DNA of 55,016 nt from a virus (IMGVR_UViG_3300025671_000081:1-55016), one strand, 5' to 3'. Shown: positions 4,828 to 50,914, numbered from the stretch's first letter. Made by a program: numbers and translations. Notes: generated by a model not told the origin, from the sequence alone.

Positions 4828-5917
4828 ATTTACTCCAGACAACCACTACGCTGGCCTGCTCGCTCAGGCTAAAGCGCTGTTTAGAATTACTCAGAGTCAG
4901 GAAGCGATCATTTCGACCCTGAGAAGCAAATTAACAGAGCTTGAATCACAGCTTGCCATGGTCGGCACGGCCGAGATTGAAGCGCAGCGCGCGGCCAATG
5001 AGCAACTGACCAATGAAGTGGAACGACTGACTGCGCATAACGCTAACCTACAGACCGCTGTAGATGCAGGGCTGCGTCAATCTTACATGCTGCGAGAATT
5101 CGCATCGAAAATCGGCATAAGTGACCGTGAAGACCCTCTTGAAACTCTGATAGGTGGCTGGACCCGGGCTGCAGAGGCCATGAGAAATTCACTCAATGAG
5201 CATAACCGAATGTGGAAAGAGGTTCTTCAGACCAGGCACGAGCACAGGCAGATGGCCGCACAAAATAAGCGTCTGATTAATTGCTTCACGACCTTAATGG
5301 GGCACAGTACGGGCGTTGCCGGGCTTCACTTAAATGGTGATGTGGCGCCATGGTCTGAGCTGACGGAAGGCGGAAGGTTTGAAGAGTGGCTTCTGCCCTT
5401 GTCAGAACCACGCGACCAGTCTATTGATGCGCTCGAAGCCCAGTGGCAAGCCGAAGCCATTCCCGGTTTTATCCGCGAAATGGGAGAGCGACTGCGCACC
5501 CAGGATAACCGTATTACTGCCGATCCTTTGTTCTGTGTGTTCCAAAAAAGAACCATTGTCGTGCCTGACGAATATGACCATGAATGTATTGAGTGGTTTT
5601 CAGGTGACGATCAGTGCACTGCTGAAGAAGAAGAAGCGGAGCGACTCGAAGAGTTACGAAGCGACATGGAAAGCGACTACTGGCATGAGGACACGATACC
5701 TCTCGATGGTAAAGAGTTTCGCCGTATCGCCGTTGCTGAGTATGACGAGTTCGTCACCGCATCATTTACCGAAGACGATGCTAACGACCATATCCGGATG
5801 AATGGCCACAACCTGAGAAAGCCATTCGTATTCGTTACCAGCCTGTACCGCACTCCGGAAATGATCGAGCTTCGCGAATGGCTGAAGGCTCAAGAAGCGG
5901 CTAAGGAACAACAATGA
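4817..5917 (+). CDS. Ead/Ea22-like modular early protein
   Basis: Coiled-coil N-terminus; C-terminal RTQDNRITADPLFCVFQKR...NGHNLRKPF..S.YR..EM..LR domain. Confidence 0.7.
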   Translation: MRAEFTPDNHYAGLLAQAKALFRITQSQEAIISTLRSKLTELESQLAMVGTAEIEAQRAANEQLTNEVERLTAHNANLQTAVDAGLRQSYMLREFASKIGISDREDPLETLIGGWTRAAEAMRNSLNEHNRMWKEVLQTRHEHRQMAAQNKRLINCFTTLMGHSTGVAGLHLNGDVAPWSELTEGGRFEEWLLPLSEPRDQSIDALEAQWQAEAIPGFIREMGERLRTQDNRITADPLFCVFQKRTIVVPDEYDHECIEWFSGDDQCTAEEEEAERLEELRSDMESDYWHEDTIPLDGKEFRRIAVAEYDEFVTASFTEDDANDHIRMNGHNLRKPFVFVTSLYRTPEMIELREWLKAQEAAKEQQ

Positions 5918-6090
5918 AGCAGCCAGAAACATTTATCGAAATGAAAGCTGAGTGCCCACACTGCGCGGCGCATATTGTGGTTTAAGCGGTAGATGAAACC
6001 GTAAACGGCCTTGAGGAAGTAGTTTGTGAAAACTGCAAAGAGCCGTTTTCTTACTGTTACCCTGGGAATATCTATGGGTTGGCGCAATAA
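5914..6090 (+). pseudogene. small zinc-ribbon gene with in-frame stop
   Basis: ATGA-coupled start; CPHC, TAA at 5983-5985, same frame continues through CENC to TAA 6088-6090 inside attC-1. Confidence 0.65.
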
Positions 6091-6141
6091 CCCAGATTTT
6101 AACGGGCGGCGAAGCCGTCCAATTTTAAATGTTTGTTATTT
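6085..6141 (-). repeat. attC-like site 1
   Basis: Minus strand TAACAAACATTTAAAA-TTGGACGGCTTCGCCGCCCG-TTAAAATCTGGGTTA. Confidence 0.88.
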
Positions 6142-6156
6142 TGATTAGGAGGCCAC

Positions 6157-6381
6157 ATGGCTCAATCACACGTGAAAGCAGGCGCGATTAAAGATTTTGT
6201 TAACTCAATGATCGCCGCGCTGGATGCTGGTTTTGTTGAGGGCAGCACACTAACACTGGCTCAGGTGCATGAAATCGCCCGGAACCACATCGAGGACACA
6301 CACGGCATAAAGACGAAGACCTTGCGTGAAGAATGGGGTGATGAGGTCGCGGAGCTGTGTGGCGCGCCTGAGTCAAAATAA
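6157..6381 (+). CDS. cassette A hypothetical protein
   Basis: AGGAGG RBS; stop codon in the R box of next site. Confidence 0.8.
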   Translation: MAQSHVKAGAIKDFVNSMIAALDAGFVEGSTLTLAQVHEIARNHIEDTHGIKTKTLREEWGDEVAELCGAPESK

Positions 6382-6432
6382 ATCAGAGCTTTGCAGCGAG
6401 CGAAGCGAGTCTGAAACAGTGAATTGTTATTT
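6376..6432 (-). repeat. attC-like site 2 (crossover triplet mutated)
   Basis: Minus strand TAACAATTCACTG..GACTCGCTTCGCTCGCTG..AGCTCTGATTTA; sister of site 9, which ends CTCTGGGTTA. Confidence 0.8.
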
Positions 6433-6446
6433 TTCTGGAGTTTGAG

Positions 6447-6653
6447 ATGGAAAGCATAATACAGATATTCAGGATGGATGATCTTAGCATTGAGACAAGA
6501 ATATCAATAATGAAAAAGCTCGGGACGGCAATCAATTATCAGTATGCTGCTAACTGTACAGAGGAACTGATAATCGAGCTTATTCTCGCACTGGCCCCTG
6601 AAAAAGAAGATGAGCTCCGTGCAGACGAGCATTACGGTCTTTACATGAAGTAA
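6447..6653 (+). CDS. cassette B hypothetical protein
   Basis: GGAG RBS; fills space between attC-2 and attC-3. Confidence 0.78.
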   Translation: MESIIQIFRMDDLSIETRISIMKKLGTAINYQYAANCTEELIIELILALAPEKEDELRADEHYGLYMK

Positions 6654-6705
6654 AAATAACCCGGCGCTTACGTGCCGAAGGTCAATTTAAAGCGCCTTGT
6701 TATTT
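6654..6705 (-). repeat. attC-like site 3
   Basis: Minus strand TAACAAGGCGCTTTAAATTGACCTTCGGCACGTAAGCGCCGGGTTA. Confidence 0.85.
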
Positions 6706-6898
6706 GGCGCGGGAGGATAAAGTAATTAAAACATACAAGATAAACCTGAAATTAGTCCGGAGTTTTTCTATCGGATTTAGTATTTTTTCGCCAACCCTTA
6801 ATAGGTTGTGCGTGGAGCTTCATTTCGGATGCTTTCACTTATGTTTTTGGAGCAAGGGAGACAAGCTTTTTGGCTTCAATAATTATTGGTGTGGCTAG
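6704..6898 (+). CDS. cassette C hypothetical protein (start codon probably lost)
   Basis: Open frame fills the cassette; GTA at 6722 sits where sister cassette D has ATG after the same GGAGGA. Confidence 0.55.
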   Translation: MAREDKVIKTYKINLKLVRSFSIGFSIFSPTLNRLCVELHFGCFHLCFWSKGDKLFGFNNYWCG

Positions 6899-6903
6899 AG
6901 ACC

Positions 6904-6957
6904 AAATAACCAAAAGCTAACGGGCGCGTAGCGTCCAATTTGAGCGCCTTGTTATTT
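6904..6957 (-). repeat. attC-like site 4
   Basis: Minus strand TAACAAGGCGCTCAAATTGGACGCTACGCGCCCGTTAGCTTTTGGTTA. Confidence 0.9.
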
Positions 6958-6973
6958 GGCGCGGGAGGAAAGA

Positions 6974-7165
6974 ATGAACCCATTTAAACGATTTTATTAC
7001 ATTGTTCGGATAGCTATCGCAATGACCAGACTAAAACGTTGGTCAGTGTCATGCAAAGACGAATTTAAGCGTGAACTATGCCGGACTTTATATCTTACGT
7101 CGTGTTTTACATACAACAGCGTTAAATACAGTTGGATGCCCAAGGCTACACCGGCGACAAAATAA
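6974..7165 (+). CDS. cassette D hypothetical protein
   Basis: GGAGGA RBS then ATG 6974; TAA stop in the R box. Confidence 0.75.
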   Translation: MNPFKRFYYIVRIAIAMTRLKRWSVSCKDEFKRELCRTLYLTSCFTYNSVKYSWMPKATPATK

Positions 7166-7214
7166 CGCCGGAATCAGGCGCGAGGCACGAGTCGCACTGA
7201 TCCGTGTGTTATTG
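7160..7214 (-). repeat. attC-like site 5 (anchor class)
   Basis: Minus strand TAACACACGGATCAGTGCGACTCGTGCCTCGCGCCTGATTCCGGCGTTA; body identical to site 10. Confidence 0.85.
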
Positions 7215-7271
7215 AATTAAACGAACTGCAGGAAGCAATAGCGCAGGCGCGTCAGGCGCTGGGAGATTGAT

Positions 7272-7478
7272 ATGGCAAAGAGTAAGCTAACGCCGCTGAA
7301 GAAGTTTGTAGAAGAGCGCTTCGGCGATACAGTACCTATGCGCACAGCGCAGCATTGGTGTCAGCACGGTCATGTTGCAGGCGCCCGTAAGATTAGGCGT
7401 CAGTGGTTTGTCGATCCTGATAAATTCGACAACACCACCGGCAACGAGCTGGCCGACAACATCCTGATGGCGTCCTAA
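7272..7478 (+). CDS. xis: excisionase (copy 1)
   Basis: 68-aa basic winged-helix-like protein (RT..HWC..G...GARKI.R.WFV) directly upstream of int. Confidence 0.85.
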   Translation: MAKSKLTPLKKFVEERFGDTVPMRTAQHWCQHGHVAGARKIRRQWFVDPDKFDNTTGNELADNILMAS

Positions 7479-7481
7479 TCC

Positions 7482-8609
7482 ATGGCACCGAGAGCACGCA
7501 AGCACAAGGGGTTGGAGCCGAATGTGTACCCGAACAAATCAGGCGGGCACACTTACTATCGCTACAAACACCCGCTCACCGGGGTGATGTACCCGCTTGG
7601 CAAGAACAAGGCGGAGGCCAATACGGCCGCCCGGATTCTGAACGCGAAGCTGCTGCAGGATGACGCCTGCATCATCGATAAAATCATGGGCACCGTCGGT
7701 ATCAGCATGGGCGCGCTTGTTGAGCGGTTCCGCGATGACCGATTGCCGGAAATGGGCCTGAAGGTCTCGACCCTAAAACTCATGGGATACCGCCTCAATC
7801 GTATTGTGTCTGACCTGGGCGACCGCGTTATCACGGAAATGACCACGAAAGACTGCGCGACCTGGCTGGATGATAACTTTGAATCAGATCCATACGTTAA
7901 ACACCGCGGTACTCTGATCGAGCTATTCCGGTATGCCGAGAACAAAGGGCTCCGTAACGGCAACGACAACCCAGCGGAAGGCACTTACCCTAACCGTAAG
8001 AAGAAGAAAAAAGCCCGCAAGCGCATGACGGTCGAGCAGTACCTTGCCATTCACGCCGCTGCGCCAGATTGGATGAAAATCGCAATGGAACTGGCCTTGA
8101 TTACACTACAGGGTCGTTCTGAGCTGATCAGAATGCGTTACGACGCTATCAAAGACGGCTACCTGTACGTTGTCCGTCAGAAAGTCGAGAGCCACGAACA
8201 CGCACGCCTCAGAATCAAAGTAACGCCAGAGATTGAGAGTATCGTTTCCCGATCCAGAGACGGTCTGGCCAGTCCCTACATCGTGCACCGTCGCCCGCAG
8301 CGGGTGAAAGAGAACAAAGACACCGATCACTGGACCCAGATTGCGCCTAATGAGTTCACCAAGCAGTTCCGGCTTATCCGCGACAGTCTGCCGGAGTTTA
8401 TCGGCATACCCAAAGAAGAACGCGGAGGTATTCACGAGGTCCGCGCATTAGGGTCGTGGCTGTATGAGCAAGCGGGATATGAGCGCGATTACGTTCAGCA
8501 TCTAATGGCTCACTCTGATGAGAAAATGACCGAATACTATCAGAGCGAGCATGAAGAAAAGTGGATCGACGTTAAAGCTGAACTCAGCCTGGCGTCAGTG
8601 TTTAAGTAA
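7482..8609 (+). CDS. int: lambda-type tyrosine integrase (copy 1)
   Basis: N-terminal arm-binding domain (YYRYKHPLTG..LG), catalytic GRSE, HEVR, AH, MTEYY. Confidence 0.95.
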   Translation: MAPRARKHKGLEPNVYPNKSGGHTYYRYKHPLTGVMYPLGKNKAEANTAARILNAKLLQDDACIIDKIMGTVGISMGALVERFRDDRLPEMGLKVSTLKLMGYRLNRIVSDLGDRVITEMTTKDCATWLDDNFESDPYVKHRGTLIELFRYAENKGLRNGNDNPAEGTYPNRKKKKKARKRMTVEQYLAIHAAAPDWMKIAMELALITLQGRSELIRMRYDAIKDGYLYVVRQKVESHEHARLRIKVTPEIESIVSRSRDGLASPYIVHRRPQRVKENKDTDHWTQIAPNEFTKQFRLIRDSLPEFIGIPKEERGGIHEVRALGSWLYEQAGYERDYVQHLMAHSDEKMTEYYQSEHEEKWIDVKAELSLASVFK

Positions 8610-8667
8610 CCCTAGTTTTAATGGGCGCGAGTAGTACGAGCGTCCACCATTTAAATGTTTGTTATTG
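8604..8667 (-). repeat. attC-like site 6
   Basis: Minus strand TAACAAACATTTAAATGGTGGACGCTCG..CGCGCCCATTAAAACTAGGGTTA; overlaps int stop codon. Confidence 0.85.
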
Positions 8668-8700
8668 CTCTATGAGCAGAAAATAACGGAGATACACGTC

Positions 8701-8853
8701 ATGAAGTGGCTAAGAGAACGAAAAAAAAGACAGCAAGAGCAGCTTGAATTGCTAAGAAGGATTGCTAAAAGTTTAAACGAAATAGAACAAAGTATTGATC
8801 GCAATAGCCGATATGGAAATGCCATTAAGGTAGTGCGGGCATCGAGATATTAG
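8701..8853 (+). CDS. cassette F small basic protein
   Basis: GGAG RBS, ATG 8701, 50 aa. Confidence 0.7.
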   Translation: MKWLRERKKRQQEQLELLRRIAKSLNEIEQSIDRNSRYGNAIKVVRASRY

Positions 8854-8858
8854 AGTAG

Positions 8859-8907
8859 CAATAACCACGCTATTCAGCGGTTTATCCGCTGCAATGCTTT
8901 GTTATGT
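8859..8907 (-). repeat. attC-like site 7 (very short)
   Basis: Minus strand TAACAAAGCATTGCAGCGGATAAACCGCTGAATAGCGTGGTTA; one extra base in left L arm. Confidence 0.82.
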
Positions 8908-8929
8908 GTGAATTACGGGAGATATTGTT

Positions 8930-9169
8930 ATGAGCCATCACGGGCATGGTTATAGAGTTTACCCTGATGATATGTCAGAACATACTCATGAAGAGTGGTC
9001 AAAAGCTGATAGCTGGATAAACGGTCTAGAGTTTAGAAAGGACTTTAATGAGGCTTTAGCTTTGGCAAAACTTGGAGCCGTTAATTGCCAATTTCCTTTC
9101 ATTGTAATGGAGATACCAATTGGCGGCAAAAGACAGAGATTTTGTGATTGCTGGGTGATAGAACCCTAA
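8930..9169 (+). CDS. cassette G hypothetical protein
   Basis: GGGAGA RBS; fills cassette. Confidence 0.78.
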   Translation: MSHHGHGYRVYPDDMSEHTHEEWSKADSWINGLEFRKDFNEALALAKLGAVNCQFPFIVMEIPIGGKRQRFCDCWVIEP

Positions 9170-9173
9170 TGAC

Positions 9174-9231
9174 ACATAACCCGGCGTTTAACTGTGAACG
9201 CCAGTGAATCATTTATAACGCTTTGTTATTC
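9174..9231 (-). repeat. attC-like site 8
   Basis: Near identical to sites 11 and 13 (+ strand TAACCCGGCGTTTAACTGTGAACGCCAGTGAATCATTTA.AACGC.TTGTTA). Confidence 0.9.
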
Positions 9232-9247
9232 GTTGGAGTTGAGTTAA

Positions 9248-9751
9248 ATGAGTGGATTGTTTGGAGAGCCAGTAGAGCGATCGCCGCACAAAAGCGTTGA
9301 GTGGTACACGCCGTCGTGGGTATTCGATGCTCTTGCAATCGACTTTGATCTGGATCCGTCTTCTCCACACGATATGGAAACGGCGGTACCAGCAAAGAAG
9401 AAGTTCACCATCTTTGATGATGGTCTTAAACAGGAGTGGTTCGGACGAGTGTGGCTGAATCCTCCTTATGGAAAAGATACACCGTTCTGGATCCGCAGAA
9501 TGATCGAACACGGTAATGGTATTGCACTGGTATTCAGCCGCACTGATGCGGCTTGGTGTCAGGAAGCAATGGCGGCATGTACTGCAATGCTTTTTGTTAG
9601 TGGACGGATCCAGTTCACACCAGGCAAAGAGAATCAGCACAAAAAGAGCCGTTGCGGTGCTGGTACCGTGCTCTTTGCTTTCGGAAAAGAGAGCGCCTGT
9701 GCGTTGAAGCGTATGAGCGATCGCGGAGTTTATTTAGAACGGAACGAATAA
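9248..9751 (+). CDS. cassette H phage DNA N6-adenine methyltransferase (Dam-type)
   Basis: EWYTP, FDLDP, DGLKQEW, VWLNPPY, FSRTD..W, GRIQF motifs. Confidence 0.9.
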   Translation: MSGLFGEPVERSPHKSVEWYTPSWVFDALAIDFDLDPSSPHDMETAVPAKKKFTIFDDGLKQEWFGRVWLNPPYGKDTPFWIRRMIEHGNGIALVFSRTDAAWCQEAMAACTAMLFVSGRIQFTPGKENQHKKSRCGAGTVLFAFGKESACALKRMSDRGVYLERNE

Positions 9752-9807
9752 CCCAGAGCTTTGCTGTGCGAGTGCAGCGAGCGTCTGTCAAAAGTGAATT
9801 GTTATTC
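9746..9807 (-). repeat. attC-like site 9
   Basis: Minus strand TAACAATTCACTTTTGACAGACGCTCGCTGCACTCGCACAGCAAAGCTCTGGGTTA. Confidence 0.85.
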
Positions 9808-9815
9808 TTACAGAG

Positions 9816-10016
9816 GTGATTATGAGCAGAGAGATGCTAACGAATCGTTTGGAAAAAATTGCCGGTAGTAACGTGATTATGTCAAACGACAAAGAGAAAG
9901 CGGCGCTGTGTAAGTGTGTCAACTATCTGGCCACGCAGCTACAGATTCTTGCGAATGACTTGGATGAAAGTCCTGCAAATGTTTTTAAGCTGGCGTCCGA
10001 GATACTGGAAGAATAA
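9816..10016 (+). CDS. cassette I hypothetical protein
   Basis: GAGGTG RBS (start may be ATG 9822); stop in R box. Confidence 0.75.
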   Translation: MIMSREMLTNRLEKIAGSNVIMSNDKEKAALCKCVNYLATQLQILANDLDESPANVFKLASEILEE

Positions 10017-10065
10017 CGCCGGAATCAGGCGCGAGGCACGAGTCGCACTGATCCGTGTGTTATTG
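10011..10065 (-). repeat. attC-like site 10 (anchor class)
   Basis: Body identical to site 5. Confidence 0.85.
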
Positions 10066-10122
10066 AATTAAACGAACTGCAGGAAGCAATACAGCAAGCG
10101 CGTCAGGCGCTGGGAGATTGAT

Positions 10123-10329
10123 ATGGCAAAGAAGAAGTTAACGCCGTTGAAGAAATTCGTAAAAGACAAGTTCGGCGACGACGTACCTATGCGAACCGCG
10201 CAACACTGGTGCCAGAATGGGCACTTGGCTGGAGCCCGAAAAGTAGGCCGGAAATGGTTTGTCGATGCAGAGCAGTTCGATAAAACTACCGGCAATGAAC
10301 TGGCCGACAGCATCCTGATGGCGTCTTAA
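10123..10329 (+). CDS. xis: excisionase (copy 2)
   Basis: 15 of 68 residues differ from copy 1 (hand count). Confidence 0.85.
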   Translation: MAKKKLTPLKKFVKDKFGDDVPMRTAQHWCQNGHLAGARKVGRKWFVDAEQFDKTTGNELADSILMAS

Positions 10330-10332
10330 TTC

Positions 10333-11460
10333 ATGGCACCAAGAGCGCGCAAGCATACAGGTCTGGAAGCGAATGTGTACCCGAACAAGTCCGGCGGGCA
10401 CACTTACTATCGCTACAAACACCCCCTTACCGGGGTGATGCACCCGCTTGGCAAGAACAAAGCCGAGGCCAACACGGCAGCCAGAATTCTGAACGCGAAG
10501 CTTTTGCAGGATGATGCGTGCGTTGTCGATAGAATCATGGGCACTGTTGGTATCAGCATGGCCGCTCTGGTTGAGCGGTTCCGCGACGACCGATTGCCGG
10601 AAATGAACCTCAAGCCGTCCACCCTCAAGCTAATGGGTTACCGACTGAATCGCATTGTGACCGACCTGGGCGACCGCGTTATCACGGAAATGACCACGAA
10701 AGACTGTGCGACCTGGCTGGATGATAACTTTGAATCAGATCCATACGTTAAGCACCGCGGCACTCTGATCGAGCTATTCCGGTATGCCGAGAACAAAGGG
10801 CTCCGTAACGGCAACGACAACCCAGCGGAAGGCACCTACCCTAACCGGAAGAAGAAGAAGAAAGCCCGTAAGCGCATGACGGTCGAGCAGTACCTTGCCA
10901 TTCACGCCGCTGCGCCAGATTGGATGAAAATCGCAATGGAACTGGCCTTGATTACACTACAGGGTCGTTCTGAGCTGATCAGAATGCGTTACGACGCTAT
11001 CAAAGACGGCTACCTGTACGTTGTCCGTCAGAAAGTCGAGAGCCACGAACACGCACGCCTCAGAATCAAAGTAACGCCAGAGATTGAGAGTATCGTTTCC
11101 CGATCCAGAGACGGTCTGGCCAGTCCCTACATCGTGCACCGTCGCCCGCAGCGGGTGAAAGAGAACAAAGACACCGATCACTGGACCCAGATTGCGCCTA
11201 ATGAGTTCACCAAGCAGTTTCGGCTTATCCGCGACAGACTGCCGGAGTTTATCGGCATACCCAAAGAGGAACGCGGCGGTATCCACGAAGTCCGTGCACT
11301 AGGGTCGTGGCTGTATGAGCAAGCGGGATATGAGCGTGATTACGTTCAGCACCTGATGGCTCACTCTGATGAGAAGATGACCGAATACTATCAGAGCGAG
11401 CATGAAGAAAAGTGGATCGACGTTAAAGCTGAACTCAGCCTGGCGTCGGTGTTTAAGTAA
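10333..11460 (+). CDS. int: lambda-type tyrosine integrase (copy 2)
   Basis: 11 of 375 residues differ from copy 1 (hand count); catalytic residues intact. Confidence 0.95.
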   Translation: MAPRARKHTGLEANVYPNKSGGHTYYRYKHPLTGVMHPLGKNKAEANTAARILNAKLLQDDACVVDRIMGTVGISMAALVERFRDDRLPEMNLKPSTLKLMGYRLNRIVTDLGDRVITEMTTKDCATWLDDNFESDPYVKHRGTLIELFRYAENKGLRNGNDNPAEGTYPNRKKKKKARKRMTVEQYLAIHAAAPDWMKIAMELALITLQGRSELIRMRYDAIKDGYLYVVRQKVESHEHARLRIKVTPEIESIVSRSRDGLASPYIVHRRPQRVKENKDTDHWTQIAPNEFTKQFRLIRDRLPEFIGIPKEERGGIHEVRALGSWLYEQAGYERDYVQHLMAHSDEKMTEYYQSEHEEKWIDVKAELSLASVFK

Positions 11461-11512
11461 CCCGGCGTTTAACTGTGAACGCCAGTGAATCATTTAGAAC
11501 GCATTGTTATGC
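11455..11512 (-). repeat. attC-like site 11
   Basis: Minus strand TAAC-AATGC-GTT(C)TAA...TTAAAC-GCCGG-GTTA, with the canonical extra C in L''. Confidence 0.9.
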
Positions 11513-11529
11513 GTTGGGAGGATACCGAA

Positions 11530-11853
11530 GTGACAGACCAAGAAAAAATAGTTTCAGCAATCAAGCATATACCTACGGATGAGATAGCTGCGCTGCCGTA
11601 CTTCAAGAACCGTGGGAAGAATTTCATAGCCCGTGGATTGGCGAATGATAAGACCGGGGAGCGTGAGCGCGCATTCAGTGACGTCATAAAGGAATTTCAC
11701 GAGGACGGCAACAGTCTCTGCCTTATTGTCGGTGAAGATGAAGCCGAATTGCGCGGGGCTTTTACCTTGTTTCAGTGGCTAACAACAAATGTCGGAAGCG
11801 TCGTTCTTGATAGGGCGTTACGGTCTACAGGAAAGAAGGTTGTTGACGCATAA
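11530..11853 (+). CDS. cassette J hypothetical protein
   Basis: GGGAGGA RBS then GTG 11530; stop in R box. Confidence 0.78.
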   Translation: MTDQEKIVSAIKHIPTDEIAALPYFKNRGKNFIARGLANDKTGERERAFSDVIKEFHEDGNSLCLIVGEDEAELRGAFTLFQWLTTNVGSVVLDRALRSTGKKVVDA

Positions 11854-11898
11854 CGCCGGAATCACGGGCCGCAGGTCCCGTGAAACCGTGTGTTATTG
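11848..11898 (-). repeat. attC-like site 12 (anchor class)
   Basis: Minus strand TAACACACGGTTTCACGGGACCTGCGGCCCGTGATTCCGGCGTTA. Confidence 0.85.
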
Positions 11899-11918
11899 AT
11901 GCTTTGGCGACTACTGTA

Positions 11919-12193
11919 TATTGCCAATGTATTGCCAATTATTTGCCAATGCAAACAGCAGGCACAAAAAAGACGCTTATAAGCGCCTGATTTGTAAGGG
12001 ATTTTTGGTAGGACTACCCAGATTCGAACTGGGGACCTCTACCATGTCAAGGTAGCCTTCCAAATCCGCTAAGCGTCTGTTTTATAAGGGATTTACCCCT
12101 TAAAACCGTGCGCAATGAGCGCAATAAACGCGAACCGCGCAACCTTTTAAAATCAATGACTTAGGTTTTGCGCAACCACTGGATATTGCCAAT
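11919..12193. other. attP region: arm-type repeats (TA)TTGCCAAT at 11919, 11930, 11942 and 12184; IHF-consensus site 12151-12163
   Basis: Repeats flank the tRNA-derived core; AATCAATGACTTA matches WATCAANNNNTTR. Confidence 0.8.
12006..12055 (-). other. attP core = 3' part of tRNA-Val(GAC), not a full tRNA
   Basis: Minus strand CTACC-TTGACAT-GGTAG anticodon arm, CCCAG-TTCGAAT-CTGGG T arm, ending CCTACCA; D arm and 5' acceptor strand absent. Confidence 0.9.
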
Positions 12194-12200
12194 AGGAATT

Positions 12201-12764
12201 ATGATGCCCAGACGAAAACAAAAACCAAAAACCCGCAAGAAGCCCATGCGCAGAACGGCACGTCAAGTGCAACGTCATGAAGCGTCGCGGCTCATAAAAG
12301 ACCTGGTCGCCGTGTACGTCTTCACCGGTAGCGGCTCAAAGCCTCGAGTATTCAACCGCACAACGTTCATAGAGGTTCCGGTTACCGATGAAATTGACTC
12401 CGCCCTAAAGAGTCACCCGTACCGATGGCGTATCAGCACTGCCCTTCTGCTTCGCGAAAAGAATGGCAAGCGGAAACTTATTAGTGAAGAGGTGTCTGCT
12501 CGCGATAAAAATGGAATCGCTCGAATCGAGTACGGAAACCTAGCGCCACAGGTTGTCGATAGTCACGTCGACCTCGTCTCAAGCTACTCCAACCAAGACT
12601 TAATAGTAACAGTGGGCTGGGTTGCTGATCCAAGCGGCAAAGAGCTCTCGCCAGAAGATGAAATGCGTCTCTATGAAGCAGCGAAGGCTTATGAAAACTT
12701 CATCGCTGCTTGGGAACTTCCTGCTGCTGAGGCTGCCGGCCAGTTAGTGGAAAAGGTAGCGTGA
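12201..12764 (+). CDS. hypothetical phage protein
   Basis: AGGA RBS before ATG 12201; long ORF. Confidence 0.7.
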   Translation: MMPRRKQKPKTRKKPMRRTARQVQRHEASRLIKDLVAVYVFTGSGSKPRVFNRTTFIEVPVTDEIDSALKSHPYRWRISTALLLREKNGKRKLISEEVSARDKNGIARIEYGNLAPQVVDSHVDLVSSYSNQDLIVTVGWVADPSGKELSPEDEMRLYEAAKAYENFIAAWELPAAEAAGQLVEKVA

Positions 12765-12796
12765 CGAATCCTGAAGAGGATGAAAAGCACAGGTAC

Positions 12797-12854
12797 ACAT
12801 AACCCGGCGTTTAACTGTGAACGCCAGTGAATCATTTATAACGCATTGTTATGC
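12797..12854 (-). repeat. attC-like site 13
   Basis: Near identical to sites 8 and 11. Confidence 0.9.
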
Positions 12855-12871
12855 GTTGGGAGGATATTTAA

Positions 12872-13075
12872 GTGACAGATGAAAATTCATTCGTGATTCG
12901 TCTTTTACACGAGAAAAACGAGTTGCATTGCAGAATGACACTACTAAATCGTTTCAATCATTCTGATAAATTTTTAGAGCTGAGCGAAGAAGAGCAAGTG
13001 CTACTACTGGAACAACACAGAGCAATGCAGAAATATTACGGGATACTCAACAAGCGCTGCGCCCTGTACGCATAA
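12872..13075 (+). CDS. cassette K small helical phage protein (crAss001_48-like)
   Basis: RL..EK.EL..R...L..F...DKF..L..EEQ.LL..Q..AM..Y..IL..R pattern. Confidence 0.75.
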   Translation: MTDENSFVIRLLHEKNELHCRMTLLNRFNHSDKFLELSEEEQVLLLEQHRAMQKYYGILNKRCALYA

Positions 13076-13127
13076 CGCCGGAGTCGCGCGTCGAGGTACG
13101 AGATCGCCGCGCACCCGTGTGTTATTT
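13070..13127 (-). repeat. attC-like site 14 (anchor class)
   Basis: Minus strand TAACACACGGGTGCGCGGCGATCTCGTACCTCGACGCGCGACTCCGGCGTTA. Confidence 0.82.
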
Positions 13128-13415
13128 CGGTATGACCATAACCTCTATATCCGGAGCTGCAACCCGGGCACGCTCAGGGAACCGACCTTCTTCAGGTTCG
13201 CATATCAGAACAATGGCCGGCATCCGCCCTGTCGATCGAGCGTAGTAAAGAGCCTGGCCTACAGCCTCCGCCCATTTATGGCACCAGTCGAACTCAACCG
13301 CGTGAGTAGGTGTGAGGCAGTCGACCCGGGTACGGTCTTCGAGCACGTATTCGGTTTTACCGCCCATATGTGGGCAATACGCGCCAACGTAGTCAGCTTC
13401 CATTGGTCTCGTCAT
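13122..13415 (-). CDS. small PD-(D/E)XK-like fold protein
   Basis: RVDCLT..HAVEFD..KWAEAVGQALYY motif; stop codon inside R'' of site 14. Confidence 0.65.
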   Translation of the reverse strand: MTRPMEADYVGAYCPHMGGKTEYVLEDRTRVDCLTPTHAVEFDWCHKWAEAVGQALYYARSTGRMPAIVLICEPEEGRFPERARVAAPDIEVMVIPK

Positions 13416-13578
13416 TTGCTGCAGATTGATTCATTGCAGCAATGTAGCCTAAACGGAATGACATCGCATCTTTAATGACAGGGTGATCGGGTTCGAGTTC
13501 GGCGATAGAAAACAGGGCCTTCTTACCGCAAGGCTTCTGAGTAATGATGAGACTTTCGGTGATTGCTATTACTTCCAT
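13393..13578 (-). CDS. hypothetical protein
   Basis: GGAAGAG upstream of ATG 13578; overlaps next gene. Confidence 0.5.
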   Translation of the reverse strand: MEVIAITESLIITQKPCGKKALFSIAELEPDHPVIKDAMSFRLGYIAAMNQSAANDETNGS

Positions 13579-13712
13579 GAGGTGCTCTTCCTTATTGATA
13601 AACAAAATATTAATGCATCCAATTGCAAGCGTCATCGGTAACAGAAGGTCAATTTATCCAATGCAGACAAAATGGCATACTTTGTCTAAATGGGAAAATT
13701 GAGGTTAAAGGT

Positions 13713-14159
13713 ATGCATGGTGTGGCCGGTCTGGGCAGTCGACTTCGAGAAGCGCGCAGGGAGGCGGGGCTATCAGCTGATTGGATGGTGCGCTTTCTTA
13801 ATGGGTACTTAGTATCAGCAGGTATGAAGCCCGTAGGCATACAGACCTATTACAGCTGGGAGCGAATAGGCACTCCCAGAGAAAGACCGGGGAAGTCCTA
13901 CCCTCACCCGCTGATTTATAAGCTGGTGCTGATCCCGCTGGGTGTGACTGGATACTGGCTGTTCAATGGGGATATGGGCGGCAAGATAGTAAAGTACAGA
14001 AAGGATCTTCCTCAGCTTGAGAAGATCAATTACGGCATCGAACAGAAATCAGGAGTAACGCTGCCTGATCGCTTGAGGATGGAATTTAATAGGGTTGAGC
14101 CGCTAATGAACAACGGCCAGCGTAGAGGGTTATTGGAAATGCTAAGGGCAACCAGATGA
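13713..14159 (+). CDS. XRE-like HTH DNA-binding protein
   Basis: LGSRLREARREAGLS..., YSWE.IG, LGVT.YWLFNG; GAGG RBS. Confidence 0.7.
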   Translation: MHGVAGLGSRLREARREAGLSADWMVRFLNGYLVSAGMKPVGIQTYYSWERIGTPRERPGKSYPHPLIYKLVLIPLGVTGYWLFNGDMGGKIVKYRKDLPQLEKINYGIEQKSGVTLPDRLRMEFNRVEPLMNNGQRRGLLEMLRATR

Positions 14160-14398
14160 TAGGCAGCTGGACATACGAAGAGGCGGCAACGCTGATACTG
14201 ACATGCTATGCACTCAGCTTCGTCATCGTAATTATGTCTGACAGTGTACCAACCAAGTGGCGAACGTGGACCACGGTGCACTGTGTTGCGCTGGCGGTAC
14301 CCATCGCAACACTGGCCACCTCAATTCTGGTGGCGATACCCGGCCTTATGATTCTTGGCCTGGTAATCGCAGCCACGTCCCGGGTTAAGCGTCGATAG
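14156..14398 (+). CDS. small membrane protein
   Basis: 2-3 hydrophobic helices; coupled to HTH gene. Confidence 0.6.
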   Translation: MIGSWTYEEAATLILTCYALSFVIVIMSDSVPTKWRTWTTVHCVALAVPIATLATSILVAIPGLMILGLVIAATSRVKRR

Positions 14399-17300
14399 CT
14401 TTCAGCTTCGGCGATACACGCTCAATCAAGTGATTCCTGCGCAGCTTCAGCAAGTCGATCTGACGTCGCTTTTCTTCTGCGCTGAGACTTCCGTTTTTCT
14501 CAATGGCCTTAATCCGGTTGCGGATCTCCTGTAGCCGTCGGTTCACCTGATTCATTAACTTGCGCATACCAAGCAGGTCGCGGTTTTCCCTCAAGGTGTC
14601 GGCGTACTCTTCCATGTCGCCCTCTTCTCTGTACTTCCTCATATCCGCATAGAGGCGGTCAGCCTTACGCAGTGAGTCATAGAAAAGCTCTGCGTCTTTT
14701 GTGTAAGACGGCCGAGAAGCATCACGATAGAAGCGTTTGATCGGCTGATACTCTGTCAGGAAAACAGACGGTTTTTCTGTATCGCTGAACTGACGAACAG
14801 CTACATCAGGAATGGCCGACGCCCATGCGCCAACCTGTCCGAGGTAGCCACCGATTAAGAAGTCCATCTGAACCGGTGACAGCGCGTAGTTTGAATCTTC
14901 GCCGAACACGCCCGTGGTCACCTTGCTCAGCATCTTGGCGACGCCGGTTGTGCCCTCATTGACCCGATTACTTTTGCTCAGTCGGGACTGCCCCATGGTT
15001 TCAATCTGACGCCCGGTGAACGAGTCCTTGTTCGCGTAGACATCCAGCGAAGGCTGAAACATCTGAGGCACAGCACTGAATGCAAACGTACCTGTCAGCA
15101 TGTGCCACATACGCTCACGGAACAGTTTGCCGGTAGCCTCGTCGTTCATGCCTTGCTCAAGTAATCGCTCAGTTACCGTTGCGATGGCGCCAACCTCAAA
15201 CGGTTTAGGGATGGTAATGACGTGATCCGTTTCCGGAATACGGAACCACCAGTAGGAATCCTTCAGCCAGTCTGGGGCTTTACGGTATTCCTCATCGTCC
15301 TGGTTATGTGCGAACAGAGTCATAGTGGCAACCGAAAGCGCGCCAACCACAGCAGAGAATCTGGCTGCCGCCTTTTTCTCTTCAATGCTGGTTTCGACAT
15401 TACCAACCCCAAGCATCTGCGCCACTACCTTCGTCGATGGCTTCACGCCAGAGCGATACAGCTTATCCAGGCCCTGCAAGCGAGCATTCAGGAATGGTAC
15501 AACGTCGATCAGAAAGCGAACCGCAGGCCACGCGCCATGCGCAGAGAAGTCCATCAGGTCGCGAGCCTGAAACGCTGCGTACATGGTCCCCTTTCCCGCA
15601 TCCTCAGCCTGCTTGAATGCAGCCGCACGATTCACGTTCTCAAGGCTGTTATTCACATCCATCCATCTATCCCAGCCAGCCTGTAAAGGCTTCAGCCCCA
15701 GAGACAGAAGCTGTTTAGGGTCCTTGATAACCTTTGCCCGGCGCATCTGGCCATCGATCTGATACCGGATAGAGTCAGCATCCTCGCCATAAACGTGACC
15801 GAAGCTGAACGCACCGCCAGACGCCATCAGCCGCGCTCGTTCATATCCGTGACGATCAAGCAGACCGAACGATTTGAGACCCTGCGCAATGTTGCTGGCC
15901 GCGTTCTTGCTCATGTCGGTAACCGCCACTGCACTCATAGAGTCCCGCAGAAGGTTGGCGACAACGAACTGAGGCGTACTGGTGGTCAGGTTGGTGAAAG
16001 TTCTTTTAAACCAGCGCATAGCCGACATGGCATAGCCGTTCATGCCGGTGTGGTTCAGACTGGTCAGCGACGAATAGACCATAGGGTCAGAAATGTCGTA
16101 CCACTCTTTCACGCCATTACGCAGTATGAAGGTGCTTTGCTTTTTGTCCCGAGCTGCCTCGACAGTTTTCTCTGCCGCGCCTAACTCCACCGCGTTATCA
16201 ATGCCCTGCTTCGCTGCCATGTTCTTCATGCTGGCATCAACCAGGTGGTGTAAGTTCATCAATGTGTTTTGCAGGAGGTCATTCAGGTTCTGAGTGCCAC
16301 CCTTCAGCTTCTTATAAGCCTGCTGGCGAGAAAGCCCGCCCATAACCCTTGGGCCTGTAGTGTCGTCGTTGTCTTCGTCCAGTCGGTAAAAGGGAACGTA
16401 AAACTCGTTCGCCCACATTTCCCGGTTTTCGCTGGTGATAATTCCTGACTCTTCAGCAATCGCCAGAACGTCGTCCCGGTACTGCTGGAACTCTTTGAAC
16501 ACCTTTTCATACAGAACGTTACGGTTACCGCCGTTTTTCAATTCGCCGCGGTTAAGCCCTTTCAGCGCCTGAATGTCTTCCGGAGTGAACAGATTTTCAC
16601 GACCTTCGGCCATCAGCTTTTCGCCGCGGTTACCGGCGATCCACCCCATGAAGCGCTCAATCTCAGCGGACGAGCCCAGTTTATTCAGGGTATAAATCAG
16701 GCCGTTAGTGTCTTTCTTCACATCGACGATACCGTCTTTGTTCATAAAGATACGGCCTGCGTTCATCATCGCAGACACAGCACCAGAGGCGGCATTGCTC
16801 ATTTTGGCGCGAGCCCAGGCAGAACGAGTGATGTTTTCTTCACTGGTGATATTGCCGTCAAGCAACTTCTTATCCAGCTCCATCAATCCAGCATAGCGAT
16901 CAACCAGACCCTGACGGACCTTTAAGCGCCAGCCGTCCATAACGCCGCGCACTTTTTCGGCGGCAGTTTCTACCGGGCCTTTCGGCCCGATTTTAGAGAG
17001 GGCTGATTTCTCGGCATCGTTAAGGCTGGAGTCTTCCGCAAGGTCGTCGGATAAGCGGGCGAGAGTTCCACCATCCTGACCAGACGAACCATTCTCACGA
17101 AGGTGACGACGCCCTTTTTCAATCAGCGCCAGAGTGTCTGTATCCGTCCAGTCGATATCAGGATTGAATTTGCGGATCAGGTCGCGCAGGGCAGCAATAG
17201 CACGCTGTACCAGCCCCATCTTTTTACCTTTCTCGGCAAGGTGGGCAATGTACTCCAGAACAGCAATACGACGCTCATCTGGGTTGTCATAGTCAAATGC

Positions 17301-20300
17301 GTAGCGATCAATGTCTTTATTGATAACGCTATGGCCAGCCCGATAATAAATATCGTCCAGCATTTCCAGATAGGCTTTACCACCCAGCTTTTCGTTCTGC
17401 TTCAGGTAGTTGATAACGCCTCCATGGCCGACTACCTCATGCAGGAATACACGCTTGGCGTGATATTGGTCCCGGATGTTTCCAGCGACGATGTAGGTTT
17501 TTCCGGTCTTGATATCGTAGGCACCGTCGGCGCTGTCGAAGTATGCACCAAGGTCAATCTTGACGCGCCCGGGCAGATCCAGACTTGTCTCCACCACTTC
17601 AACGGAATCCATGCCTTCAGCCATATTCTCAAGCCATCCACGCACCTGCTTGGCGGTGCTTCGGGTTTGTACTCGGGATTTTCCGCTGAACTGGCTGGCG
17701 AGTGAGCGGATCTCTGCGCTCACGTCGTCGGAGAGGGATGCAAGGATGGTCTTGTCACCATCCTTTCTCGCCTCAATCGTCTCAAATATTTCATCAAAGG
17801 CTTTCTCTACAGGAAGAAGTTCTGACTCTCTGAGATACGGATACCTCTCTGCGTCTCTCGCAAACTCAGACTCTGGTGTCACATTCGCCAGAAAATCGTT
17901 CCTGTTTCCCTTTTTAGCAAGAGAGGCAATTACGTAGTTCTCAAAGGAGCGAGCGGCCAGCTCAATAATCTGTGACCAATACGCATTAGGCTTGCTATCA
18001 ATCTTCAAAGACCGCTGTCTTACGGGTGAAGAATTTAGAACGCTTGCCAGATCAGCAAACTTCTTCTCCACTTCCGGCCTCACCCCCTCGGGATGGCTCT
18101 TATCTCTTTCCCATTCTGAATCAGCAAAATCCCCATTATTCCCATAATTTTTCTGGTATCGCTCTAATTCAAACTTAGTTAGCCTTGCGCCTCTGATTTT
18201 CTTATTGACCATCATCGGCTCAGGTCTGAAAGTAATATAATTACCCTGTCCTTTGGCGGGCTCCTGCCCCCTTTTTCTCCAAAAGTAGTTATCGAGAGCA
18301 TGGAACCACTCATGGGCCAGCGAACCTGAACCCTGAGTTTTTGTCAGGTTGATCACCATCGACCAGGGCTCGTAATGAGCAGCGGCACGCCCGCCCCTAC
18401 CTCTTGAGCCAAACCCGATACCAAGCTGTCCACCCAGCCCTATAGCCTCTGGCGGGATATTCAGAGTGTCCGCAAGATCCATAAACGCATCATACGCGGC
18501 GTTGATAAGCCCTTGTCGCTCCCTTCCTCCCTTTCCTTGCTTGACCCAATTACCAAACTCAGCCCCTCGGATTGAGAACCTTTCGATAAACTCTTGAGGT
18601 GATACGTCCTTTCCTGATCTCCAATCTTCACCGACACGGGCCTTATTTTTTGAGCCTCGTGTATCTGCCTTTGATACGTTGTCCCGCGCCTTTACTGATT
18701 CCCATGCATTTACCAAATCATCATATCCGTCAATGATGTATGACCTAGCCTCGCCCAGGGTGTCGAACGTCTTGAGTGCGCGGCGTTCGCGATCACCTTT
18801 CTTGTTGATATAGAACTTCTTCCCGCCACCGGATGATCGTACTTCAAACTTCATCGACCGTTCTTTAGTCGCGGGCTCCCCAAGATACTCAGATACAGGG
18901 GCAGTAAGGTCAGAAACTGACTCCATGCCGTAGAAAGCCTTTCGTTTACCATCGATTTCTACGTCATACCAGCTTCCAGGAATCATCTCACCGCTTTCGT
19001 CACGATACTTCCCGCTCGCTCTTGATACCCTTTTTATTCTGTCCCACTGCTTCCTATCGACGGCAGACAAAAGCTCCACCTTGTCCGCAAGATTTCTCAG
19101 GGCACCTCCCTTTTCGCGCATCACCGAAATAAGTGATTCAGCCCCTTCGCCGGAAGCAAGCTCTAACAACTCACGAACAGACTTGACTGAATCGACCCAG
19201 CGCTTGAGGCGACCCCTTACCCGTGGCTTGTTCGGTATCTCATCTCGAACCACCTTGTACAGTGCTGCCTGCTTAACGTCTTCAATTTTGTTAATTTCCC
19301 CTTTCGGGAACAACTGAGAGAGCGTTGAATCCGCTATACCCTGATCATCCAAATCGGAAAGTCTTTCGGTCGCAGTGCGAAGCTCATCTTTTCTTGCGCC
19401 ACCCAACTTCTCACCAACATCATCGATGTCAGAATCAGGGGTGGAAAGGGCAGAATCAACCTCCACATCAGGCCCAAAGTCATCATTCACCTCAGTAGCG
19501 CTTGCCCGTGGCGCATCAGCAATGTCAGAGTTCCCAGCCTCCGCTGCGCCCTCTGGTACCGGATGAAGCTCGAAACCACCTTCTACTTCTACCAGCTCGT
19601 AACCTGGGTGCTTCTTCAGGGCTTTACGGGCTGCGCCTTTGTTCTTGTAAGGGTTCCCAGCGCTGTTGCGGATGATGGGCTTATCGTCTTTCTCTGGAGC
19701 TGCCTGTTCAGCCTGATCTGGCTCGCCATACTCTTCACGCAAAGAAGCCCATGCCTGACGGTTCACGCCTTCTGGCGAATCGCTGTTCAGCTCATTGAAC
19801 TGCTCAAATGACAGTGCCGACTGCGCTCGATCTACGTCAGTCTCATATTGATCTTCAATGCGCTGCATTGCGGATTCGTAGCCAGGCGAAGAAGGCTTCA
19901 GCCCTTCAGCTCTGGCCATCTTTTTCAGATAAGCCTTGCGAGTGGCTGTAAGAATTTCAGGAAGGTCAGGGGCTGGTTTTTGTGCGGGCTTTGATTTTTG
20001 TTTGCTTTCCTTTTTCGGACCCTCAGAACGAGAAACCCCGGCAGGTGCCGGGGTTTTTTCTGGTTCATTACCTTGGGAGCTTTCTGGATTATCTGGGGAG
20101 TTATTTCGCGCCTCTTGAAGCAAATCACTCTGTCCAGCCGCTGCAGCCTGATCTGCCTCAGTATCTGACCCCGCCAAGGCAAACGAATCCACCTCTGCGT
20201 CTGCCTTTGCTTTCTGCTGAGATTTCCGTTCAGTTTCTGAATTTACCTTCTCGGCCTGCTGGCGCTCTTCTTCCTTCTGGCGAAGGTCTTCTTCCGTGTA

Positions 20301-42133: not shown

Positions 42134-42230
42134 CGTCCCGATACTCCTGCTCTCGTTTCTGCGCCTCAGACGCCCGGAAAAACCCGAGCGCTGCGCTGAT
42201 CAACTTTAGTAACGTGGAGAAGCCGCGCAC
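41967..42230 (-). CDS. putative inner-membrane spanin (Rz-like)
   Basis: N-terminal hydrophobic helix; overlapped by lipoprotein gene. Confidence 0.5.
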   Translation of the reverse strand: MRGFSTLLKLISAALGFFRASEAQKREQEYRDDVKEIHGDPVGSWNMRFLRGRVRDDEGGDGSDLSGRADNGTGGVHSADSSTSGRD

Positions 42231-42571
42231 TATTTCAGCGCCTTGTTAATGCCGCGACTGTCAATTTTGAACGGGTCGTTCGGCTTCTGCTTCGCAAACA
42301 GGAAGTTAAGCGCCAGGTAATCGATCACCTTATACAGCTTACCGATAATGCGGTTATCACTCGGAGTAGGCGTTAGCGACACGATCAACGACGCAACAGG
42401 ACTCAACAGGAACAATACCGCCAGCGCCTTTTCTACCGGATTAAGAACAGACCAGAGGCCGACCACCATGGCCGCCGCGTCCGTATCAATAACAGCAGCC
42501 TCAGCCGCAAATACCAGAGCCGGAGCAAAGAGCAGCCCAAGCGTTAAAAACACTGTAGTAATAAATTTCAT
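42230..42571 (-). CDS. holin-like membrane protein
   Basis: TM helices; AS.I..LTPTPSDN...KLYK.ID.LALN motif. Confidence 0.6.
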   Translation of the reverse strand: MKFITTVFLTLGLLFAPALVFAAEAAVIDTDAAAMVVGLWSVLNPVEKALAVLFLLSPVASLIVSLTPTPSDNRIIGKLYKVIDYLALNFLFAKQKPNDPFKIDSRGINKALK

Positions 42572-47154: not shown

Positions 47155-47203
47155 TAATAACACACGCCAGCACGAGACAAAGCTCGTGTGTGCGGCGTTA
47201 TTG
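47155..47203 (+). repeat. solitary attC-like site 15 (anchor class)
   Basis: AATAACACACGCCAGCACGAGACAAAGCTCGTGTGTGCGGCGTTATT; GTTA overlaps stop of minus-strand ORF. Confidence 0.72.
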
Positions 47204-50681: not shown

Positions 50682-50914
50682 ACCAGCTCGACCACCTTGG
50701 CTTTCTGATTGCGGTCAGCGGACATGATGGCGTCCATTTCCACGGCGGCATCCATCGCTATCCAGGCGAACTCAGTTAAGCGCCCGCCGGGCAACATCCA
50801 TCCGCGCTCTACAGCGTGAGGAACAACCGTCGCCGAACCATGAACAATCGCCTTTAGGCCATGACGACTCGGATAAATTGACGTATCAGTTTTGCGTTCG
50901 TAGTTTCTACTCAT
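50678..50914 (-). CDS. hypothetical protein
   Basis: Coupled ORF; GW.LPGG motif. Confidence 0.65.
   Translation of the reverse strand: MSRNYERKTDTSIYPSRHGLKAIVHGSATVVPHAVERGWMLPGGRLTEFAWIAMDAAVEMDAIMSADRNQKAKVVELV

Follow-up and report, generated by a model that had tools for sequence, protein, structure and literature searches.

The viral record IMGVR_UViG_3300025671_000081 (55,016 bp; analysed in its entirety and called the window below) is a lambdoid temperate phage in which genes around the integrase and attachment site are separated by hairpins resembling the attC sites of integrons. Comparison with related phages shows cassette-sized rearrangements whose junctions fall at TAA|C (the bar marks the putative crossover); the excisionase–integrase module (xis-int) and the stretch holding attP are likewise seen to sit in cassette-like units. 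As judged with a covariance model, the hairpins appear to belong to the attC type of the host family itself, and the cassettes are probably moved in trans by an integron integrase (IntI) of the host. Such borrowing of host IntI had been proposed in a preliminary description of the region.

Array of attC-like sites and its kinship to host attC

Between positions 6087 and 13125 every gap between co-directional open reading frames (ORFs) is occupied by an element of 44-60 nt that starts with (A)TAAC and ends with TGTTAT. The strict pattern TAAC-N30-70-TGTTAT finds 13 distinct sites on the + strand, all of them in 6088-13125, vs 3 on the − strand anywhere in the window. GTTAT is present in all 14 array sites and TAAC in 13 (the site at 6381 has TAAA). 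Together with an outlier at 47157 there are 15 sites, 14 of which fall within 7 kb, in the variable int/attP region. Most fold as hairpins closed by ATAAC/GTTAT, with z-scores of −1.2 to −4.6 vs shuffles, and about six sequence families (A to F) can be told apart. The stop codon of the upstream ORF is the TAA of the TAAC box in 8 of 13 window units, and a ribosome-binding site (RBS) follows about 10-25 nt past GTTAT.

Host attC sites were collected from DNA beside intI in eight host-family genomes and in the locus of G001, an Oceanospirillaceae metagenome-assembled genome (MAG), as hairpins closed by AAC/GTT; the loci were L013 and L024-L031, and no phage sequence was used. RNAalifold found no structure in the first MAFFT alignment of these sites (A1). 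Seventeen of the 21 sequences were realigned, with four short or misaligned ones dropped, and the structure was set by hand from single-sequence folds. On the coding strand the host build is xTAAC, a 3-nt spacer (AAG), 5 bp, a bulge, 3-4 bp and another bulge, often with GG-A-CGC…GCGCC, then a spacer (GGC) and GTTAx. In the 17-site alignment 87.8% of cells are paired vs 32-42% with slid partners, and the covariation exceeds that in all 500 shuffles. A covariance model built from these 17 sites, which lie next to intI in 9 host-family loci, was used as a proxy attC model (R1).

R1 was run over the whole window on both strands with filters off, the phage sites having been defined independently beforehand. 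Its 12 best matches all fall on premarked sites, and 13 of the 15 predefined sites are recovered at E<=1.4, 11 of them full length and two (both type B) in part; matches at E<1 outside the sites number only two. In three unrelated control loci (L001, L002, L004) R1 gave no match at E<=2. Scores are higher in relatives of the phage, where the best match reaches 34 bits (E 3.9e-6).

Array matches lie on the − strand. The first site, of type C (6087-6139; R1 12.0 bits, E 1.4; hairpin z −2.9), is followed by a type D variant with TAAA for TAAC (6381-6431; z −3.3; missed by R1) and by two type E sites, at 6656-6703 (16.7 bits, E 0.083; 97% identical to L003:12473-12541) and at 6906-6955 (22.1 bits, E 0.0033, the top match of the window). 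Identical type A sites precede xis1 (7162-7212; 16.3 bits, E 0.1; z −3.7) and xis2 (10013-10063; 16.3 bits, E 0.1). Between them lie a type C site after int1 (8606-8665; 19.0 bits, E 0.022), which retains the host motif GG-A-CGC/GCGCC, a type F site (8861-8905; 16.5 bits, E 0.096; z −3.9), a type B site before the Dam ORF (9176-9229; partial match at 9215-9229, E 0.18) and a type D hairpin missed by R1 (9748-9805). Further on are a type B site after int2 (11457-11510; 13.8 bits, E 0.47), a type A' site, a kind that always stands just before the attP arm (11850-11896; 18.0 bits, E 0.038), another type B site (12799-12852; partial match at 12838-12852, E 0.26) and, as the last of the array, a type A'' site (13072-13125; 17.7 bits, E 0.047).

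The solitary site at 47157-47201 is on the + strand among − strand genes near ssb (18.0 bits, E 0.039); it sits between small − strand ORFs upstream of ssb. An array of attC-like sites also occupies the ssb region of G089, whose SSB is 71% identical to that of the window. A weak R1 match at 42209-42249 (9.4 bits, E 6.4) is possibly what is left of a site that has decayed; within it, 42225-42248 match the 3′ half of type E sites over 24 nt. An Rfam search of 5500-14500 at E<=1 returned no attC family; it gave a weak tRNA-like match at the attP core and a chance snoRNA match.

When 23 distinct phage sites were fitted to the model (A3), 87.9% of cells were paired vs 29-46% with slid partners, figures that are flattered by the fitting itself; 12 of the 19 pairs change on both sides, and all 23 rows keep the UAAC/GUUA pairs. 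We base the kinship to attC on the coincidence of the R1 matches with independently defined sites and on their uniform strand.

All 13 R1 site matches in the window are antisense to the local genes: matches in the array are on the − strand and the genes on the + strand, while the match at 47157 is on the + strand and the genes on the − strand. In relatives, 29 of 31 matches (E<=2) are antisense to int; in G089 the three matches compared with ORFs (11673, 15169, 15854) are on the + strand amid − strand ORFs. Read on the − strand, phage sites have the form TAACA(A/C)…GG(C/G)GTTA and retain GG-A-CGC/GCGCC like host top strands. The usual cassette orientation, in which attC follows downstream of its ORF in coding sense, was not found in the phage, whereas host arrays are sense. 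A reading of the phage sites in the sense of the genes, with crossover at the 3′ GTTAT, is contradicted by the xis-int repeat boundaries, by the strand of the R1 matches and by the spacer and GGACGC motifs.

attC-site clusters that have no integron integrase (CALINs) are defined, in 10.1101/2022.09.11.507474, as at least two close attC sites with no intI nearby. The window has 14 such sites in 7 kb and no IntI match in the record. By four tested features the phage sites belong to the attC/CALIN class; they depart from its usual orientation.

Cassette junctions and xis-int copies

According to PMC9892861, IntI crosses over at G|TT of the R' box. If the − strand of the phage array corresponds to the attC top strand, the R' box (5′-G|TTAT) is ATAA|C on the + strand, at the low-coordinate edge of a site. 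A phage cassette would read [C-attC-GTTAT - RBS - ORF - TAA], with crossover at TAA|C on the + strand. All mapped junctions lie inside the ATAAC box that the sequences share at the R' end, a resolution limited to 5-8 shared letters.

The relatives used for comparison were L003, a prophage locus in G001, and L036-L041, loci from metagenomes, together with two other complete site-bearing phage genomes, G089 and G090 (one of 38.7 kb with terminal repeats, one of 37 kb). No match was obtained when 5900-14400 was compared by megablast with 50,697 phage records.

An internal repeat of the window (7161-8612 = 10012-11463) is bounded by TAAC boxes at its start and end: it begins at AATAAC of the type A site and runs to GTAACCC of the following site (type C after int1, type B after int2). 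The repeat delimits two putative cassettes on the + strand, [inverted attC type A + xis1 + int1] at 7166-8609 and [inverted attC type A + xis2 + int2] at 10017-11460. The int1 stop codon is the TAA of the following site's TAAC. The unit [A + xis + int] has differing neighbours in L003, L036, L037 and L041; its six contexts have different upstream 7-mers, and behind one and the same int end, GTGTTTAAGTAA|C (GTAA|C), stand five different types of site. On this comparison the xis-int module itself behaves as a cassette, present twice.

The two copies are mosaic: site and leader are 100% identical, xis 70-80%, the 5′ third of int 80-94% and the rest of int 99-100%. This pattern suggests gene conversion after acquisition of two diverged cassettes. 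In run X1 the allele-specific xis pieces have depths of 75.9 and 80.2, the unique flanks 77-97 and the shared int part 124. The depths fit two xis-int copies in one genome, although X1 is maybe the source sample and so gives no independent support.

A smaller unit was found at different array positions in two phages. The cassette [type C site + 50-aa ORF 8701-8853] at 8610-8864 (+ strand) recurs in L037: window 8607-8865 equals L037:7427-7685 with 100% identity over 259 nt, while the xis-int modules of both phages are only 93% identical. The cassette is upstream of xis-int in L037, with a type A site next, and downstream of int1 in the window, with a type F site next. A 265-bp cassette of the window, [type D site + 66-aa ORF] at 9752-10016 (+ strand), is absent at this junction in L041, where [B + Dam], 99.7% identical to the window, ends …GAATAA|C directly on a type A site.

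The A'' site is identical in 55 of 55 nt in L005, L006 and L008, with the same downstream gene and three different upstream sequences. These copies (L005:201-300, L006:4365-4460, L008:1935-2030) precede a gene starting MANLKAQIHIAKTQLGMDDD, and the three contigs have no tyrosine recombinase.

A marine run of another study yielded contigs that join the Dam unit to a type E site, with 8 letters shared at the joint; this is probably shorter than the assembler's word length. In the same run another contig joins the orf122 unit to a type E-like site, and both joints are at the TAAC box. One contig joint (11521>13085) is uninterpretable because type B sites and their leaders are repeated, and window bins without contig cover, such as 10840-11086, are uninformative.

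At window 5914-6090, a small ORF resembling a zinc ribbon (CPHC…CENC) is broken by an in-frame TAA at about 5983-5985. Its counterpart in L003 is cut after …AACATTTAT by an attC-like site (TAT|AAC), another junction at the box.

Phage integrases, attP and the choice of recombinase

The record contains exactly two PF00589 matches, at 8019-8552 and 10870-11403. They belong to the lambda-type tyrosine integrases int1 (7482-8609, +; 375 aa; PF09003 E 1e-12, PF00589 E 2.6e-10) and int2 (10333-11460, +; 375 aa; PF09003 E 1.2e-11, PF00589 E 1.4e-10), both having the PF09003 arm-binding and the PF00589 catalytic domain. Each is preceded by a 68-aa ORF: xis1 (7272-7478, +), excisionase-like, was taken from the ORF list and has no Pfam match, while xis2 (10123-10329, +), Xis-like, matches HTH_17 at E 5.4e-4, below the cut-off (20.6 vs 27 bits). 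The two xis ORFs are about 75-83% identical at the DNA level, and NCBIfam assigns no family to any of the four Int/Xis proteins. Int2 is 97% identical to the prophage Int of L003. The closest Int from an isolated phage, that of Marinobacter phage PS3, has 47% identity; all 121 matching phage records are below 60%, and lambda Int is 26% identical over 99% of the length.

The IntI model TIGR02249 gave no match at E<=10 over the whole record, and BLASTP of Int2 against intact host-family IntI gave E 0.19 only. The statements of the preliminary description that two lambda-type Ints with arm-binding domains are the only tyrosine recombinases, and that nothing in the phage resembles IntI, hold. Its caveat that an intI gene could hide in a missing part of the phage genome is rejected: the record is whole, with 100% completeness estimated by CheckV (end repeats were not found), so that little or nothing is absent.

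The attP reported to match these Ints was found as well. Window 11850-12056 aligns at 92.8% identity to L003:12657-12863, the prophage end abutting tRNA-Val(GAC), and the identity ends inside that tRNA gene (L003:12813-12889). The attP core, at 12004-12056 on the − strand, is a 51-53-nt identity block identical to the 3′ part of tRNA-Val(GAC) and has no TAAC or GTTA box. Five prophages (L003, L036, L037, L038, L039) abut this tRNA gene, and at 12004 and 12056 contigs from public runs pass out of the window into sequence of the host. Three putative tandem arm-type repeats lie left of the core at 11920-11950 (+ strand; exact ATTGCCAAT at 11920 and 11931 and a copy with one mismatch at 11942), and a fourth, exact ATTGCCAAT lies to its right at 12185-12193 (+). 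As the window holds 19 copies with up to one mismatch vs 16.3 expected, which is not above chance, only the clustering of these repeats is suggestive. The type A' site and the attP arm recur together in L003, L036 and L037. In run X19 the depth is 621 at window 11828-12074 vs 3-10 elsewhere; the peak falls on the tRNA-Val part of attP and comes from abundant tRNA genes of the host, not from phage.

Recombination of the cassettes is, in our judgment, probably the work of host IntI. Host-encoded IntI would excise, insert and reshuffle the phage cassettes in trans, acting on the folded + strand (the attC bottom strand), while the two lambda-type Ints would serve only attP x attB(tRNA-Val). To our knowledge, IntI is the only enzyme family that cuts attC at the position of the junctions. 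We favour host IntI because of this cut position, because IntI is found above the curated cut-off in 55 of 86 host-family genomes (G001 and 85 others), and because of published activity in trans on phage attC: in PMC9892861, IntI1 recombines five of six phage-borne attC sites.

The only identified lysogen is G001. Its contig C31 (locus L013) carries an intI remnant at L013:7941-8500. A perfect box of the LexA type, CTGTTTAAATATACAG, precedes it by 14 nt, and downstream there are two canonical attC sites (9148-9254 and 11163-11219). Residues 1-139 and 138-178 of the remnant align to residues 1-127 and 269-309 of intact IntI.

Several observations count against the role of host IntI or against the descent of the sites from host arrays. 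The G001 intI is a 181-aa remnant lacking about 141 internal residues, and this genome has no other IntI match; the array in the G001 host would not be movable by IntI now, although the MAG may be incomplete. The check proposed earlier with an IntI profile accordingly came out divided: no match in the phage contig, 55 of 86 genomes in the host family and an internally deleted remnant in the lysogen, so that the earlier idea of host IntI in trans gains from host-type attC, IntI-bearing relatives and TAA|C junctions and loses at the lysogen. A LexA box, searched in the strict form CTGT-N8-ACAG, was found at only 2 of 11 intI loci, namely at the G001 remnant and 44 nt upstream of one intact intI, and no repressor of the Peptidase_S24 type was found in the phage. 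The link of cassette movement to SOS induction is thin. R1 E-values of single window sites are modest (0.003-1.4), both type D sites are missed and two type B sites are matched in part only. Type A sites have their single bulge on the other arm from host attC. Of 86 family genomes one has the exact type A pattern, in its prophage only; this type, at least, is not shared with chromosomal integrons. Capture from host arrays would not lead one to expect inverted sites, and the joints of the marine run come from assembled contigs, not reads. Inversion and type A distribution, taken together, suggest that the cassettes form a pool specific to phages and were not simply captured from host arrays.

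An alternative, which we regard as unlikely, is that genes are shuffled by homology or short homology, through the phage RecT and YqaJ-type exonuclease (helped by NinB, NinG and SSB) or through host RecA. The blocks of hairpin plus leader would act as portable homology, as in the early stem-loop and boundary elements of other phages, and no site-specific enzyme would be needed. The phage does encode recT (8-793, +; PF03837 E 1.1e-24), the exonuclease gene (797-2431, +; PF09588 E 3.7e-7), NinB, NinG and SSB; the mosaic xis-int copies are typical of gene conversion; some site-plus-leader blocks are kept before differing ORFs, such as type E plus TTTGGCGCGGGAGGA at three places; and crossovers in int and in A'/attP could exchange the whole of the int-attP variation. 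Against this, site families that are not homologous are joined exactly at TAA|C, five after int, and F or A after orf50. Nothing beyond the ATAAC(C) box is common to the joints int|C, int|B, int|G, orf50|F, orf50|A, Dam|D and Dam|A, and the homology on both sides that such exchange requires was not found there. The joint between backbone and cassette in L037 lies within <=6 nt at the 5′ edge of the site, not along its 60 nt. In G089 and G090, which also bear sites, no ORF has a BLASTP match to the window RecT at E<=1e-5. Homology would, moreover, leave the attC-type fold with its compensatory changes unexplained.

It is also improbable, more so than shuffling by homology, that the hairpins are elements acting at the level of RNA or transcription (transcript processing, stabilisation, stop-RBS coupling), derived from attC but no longer recombining, with the cassette pattern as a fossil. 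All sites are between co-directional ORFs of one operon, the stop codons and RBS spacing described above suit such coupling (8 of 13 units with the stop in TAAC), top and bottom strands fold about equally well, and the lysogen G001 has no working intI. Recent movement is nevertheless indicated by the 259-nt cassette, which keeps 100% identity at two array positions although the int genes of the phages concerned differ by 7%, and by the further order variant in the independent marine run. The sites are concentrated in the variable int/attP region rather than spread across all operons, and a regulatory role is compatible with recombination.

An unrecognised recombinase encoded by the phage is very improbable. 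Many window ORFs have no Pfam family and could include one, but no ORF of at least 50 aa is common to all three complete site-bearing phages at E<=1e-5 in BLASTP, which would miss remote homologues; at this threshold the window shares three ORFs with G089 and one with G090, and G089 and G090 share none.

The phage Int, with or without Xis, acting on the folded sites had been offered earlier as a second answer, and we reject it as the least credible of all: type A sites always flank xis-int, one always stands about 25 nt before the attP arm and there are two int copies, yet the same site families occur in five of five other viral contigs having neither a PF00589 match nor IntI (two of them 100% complete), the attP core lacks both boxes, arm-type repeats cluster at attP only, and xis-int is bounded by sites like any other cargo, with Int2 as remote from IntI as stated above.

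Other cargo of the cassettes includes a Dam methylase in the window (ORF 9248-9751; PF05869 E 3e-15), an N6_N4_Mtase methylase in L003 and a crAss001_48-like small protein; several small cassette ORFs have no family. Outside the array, the − strand carries genes for NinB, NinG, SSB, a lambda-P-like protein and a DnaT-like protein, and the middle of the genome is filled with structural genes. Among these a 2,905-aa ORF (14385-23102, −), beside the tail genes, carries a HEWFH motif like that of zinc proteases. The ORF at 50911-51963 (−) matches a C-5 cytosine methylase model at positions 66-111 only, as a partial or divergent methylase.

Comparison with known systems and significance

Phage CALINs are known: 17 were counted in 10,705 phage genomes, as given in PMC9892861. 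Those described there, like the window phage, have attC sites flanking promoterless small ORFs and no intI, and DNA methyltransferases are among the cargo in both (Dam and, in L003, N6_N4_Mtase). The examples illustrated in that source have 2-3 attC sites vs 14 in one array here; in addition, the window phage differs from the phages it describes in having all sites inverted relative to the ORFs, and in having xis-int and the attP stretch in cassette-like units with xis-int duplicated. Most bacterial CALINs are small as well, 1,362 of 2,961 having two cassettes according to 10.1101/2022.09.11.507474.

The sedentary chromosomal integrons of the host family (L013, L024-L031) have the same attC build as the phage sites, often with a stop codon in the TAAC box. 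They adjoin intI, whereas the phage record has none; in host cassettes the coding strand carries attC, placed downstream of the ORF, while in phage cassettes it is upstream and inverted; and the exact type A pattern of the phage is found in none of the 85 other family genomes.

Outside integrons, CTX-phi and similar elements rely on XerCD of the host, which acts on a phage site folded from single-stranded DNA. The likeness lies in the dependence of a phage on a host tyrosine recombinase acting on a one-strand hairpin, a dependence that here is the proposed one; in CTX-phi the whole genome integrates at dif, while here single cassettes would move and a separate phage Int would integrate the phage. 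T4-type PeSL (promoter-early stem-loop) cassettes and lambdoid boundary sequences, which shuffle by homologous recombination, share with the window short conserved intergenic stem-loops that bracket small accessory ORFs exchanged between related phages. Those elements are not attC-like, in contrast to the present sites, which are non-homologous and joined at one fixed dinucleotide step. A full-text literature search in a limited collection returned no report of mirror-oriented phage attC arrays, nor of a lambda-type xis-int module as a cassette.

Integrons are regarded as bacterial devices, and attC clusters in phages have so far been described only as rare, small curiosities. Here about 7 kb of the early operon of a complete temperate phage consists of 13 cassette units on attC of the host-family type, and in relatives and an independent marine metagenome these cassettes recur in other orders, with their joints at the crossover point of integrons.

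It is conceivable, though on balance we doubt it, that marine Oceanospirillaceae phages keep a mirror-oriented cassette pool of their own, mobilised in trans by host IntI and common to unrelated phages. If so, the pool would span a lambdoid temperate phage and complete phages of 38.7 kb and 37 kb without a tyrosine recombinase, its cargo would include a whole lambda-type xis-int module and an attP-bearing stretch, and exchange of cassettes could let a phage alter or duplicate its integration module. With the inversion, the bottom strand that recombines would lie on the non-template strand of the early operon; phage cassettes captured by a host integron would also stay silent, and the reverse.

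If host IntI acts on these sites, phages would use the integron machinery of their hosts for exchanging accessory genes such as methylases and small uncharacterised proteins. A lambda-type integrase/excisionase module could then travel as an integron cassette, and the uniform mirror orientation would point to a separate phage cassette pool.

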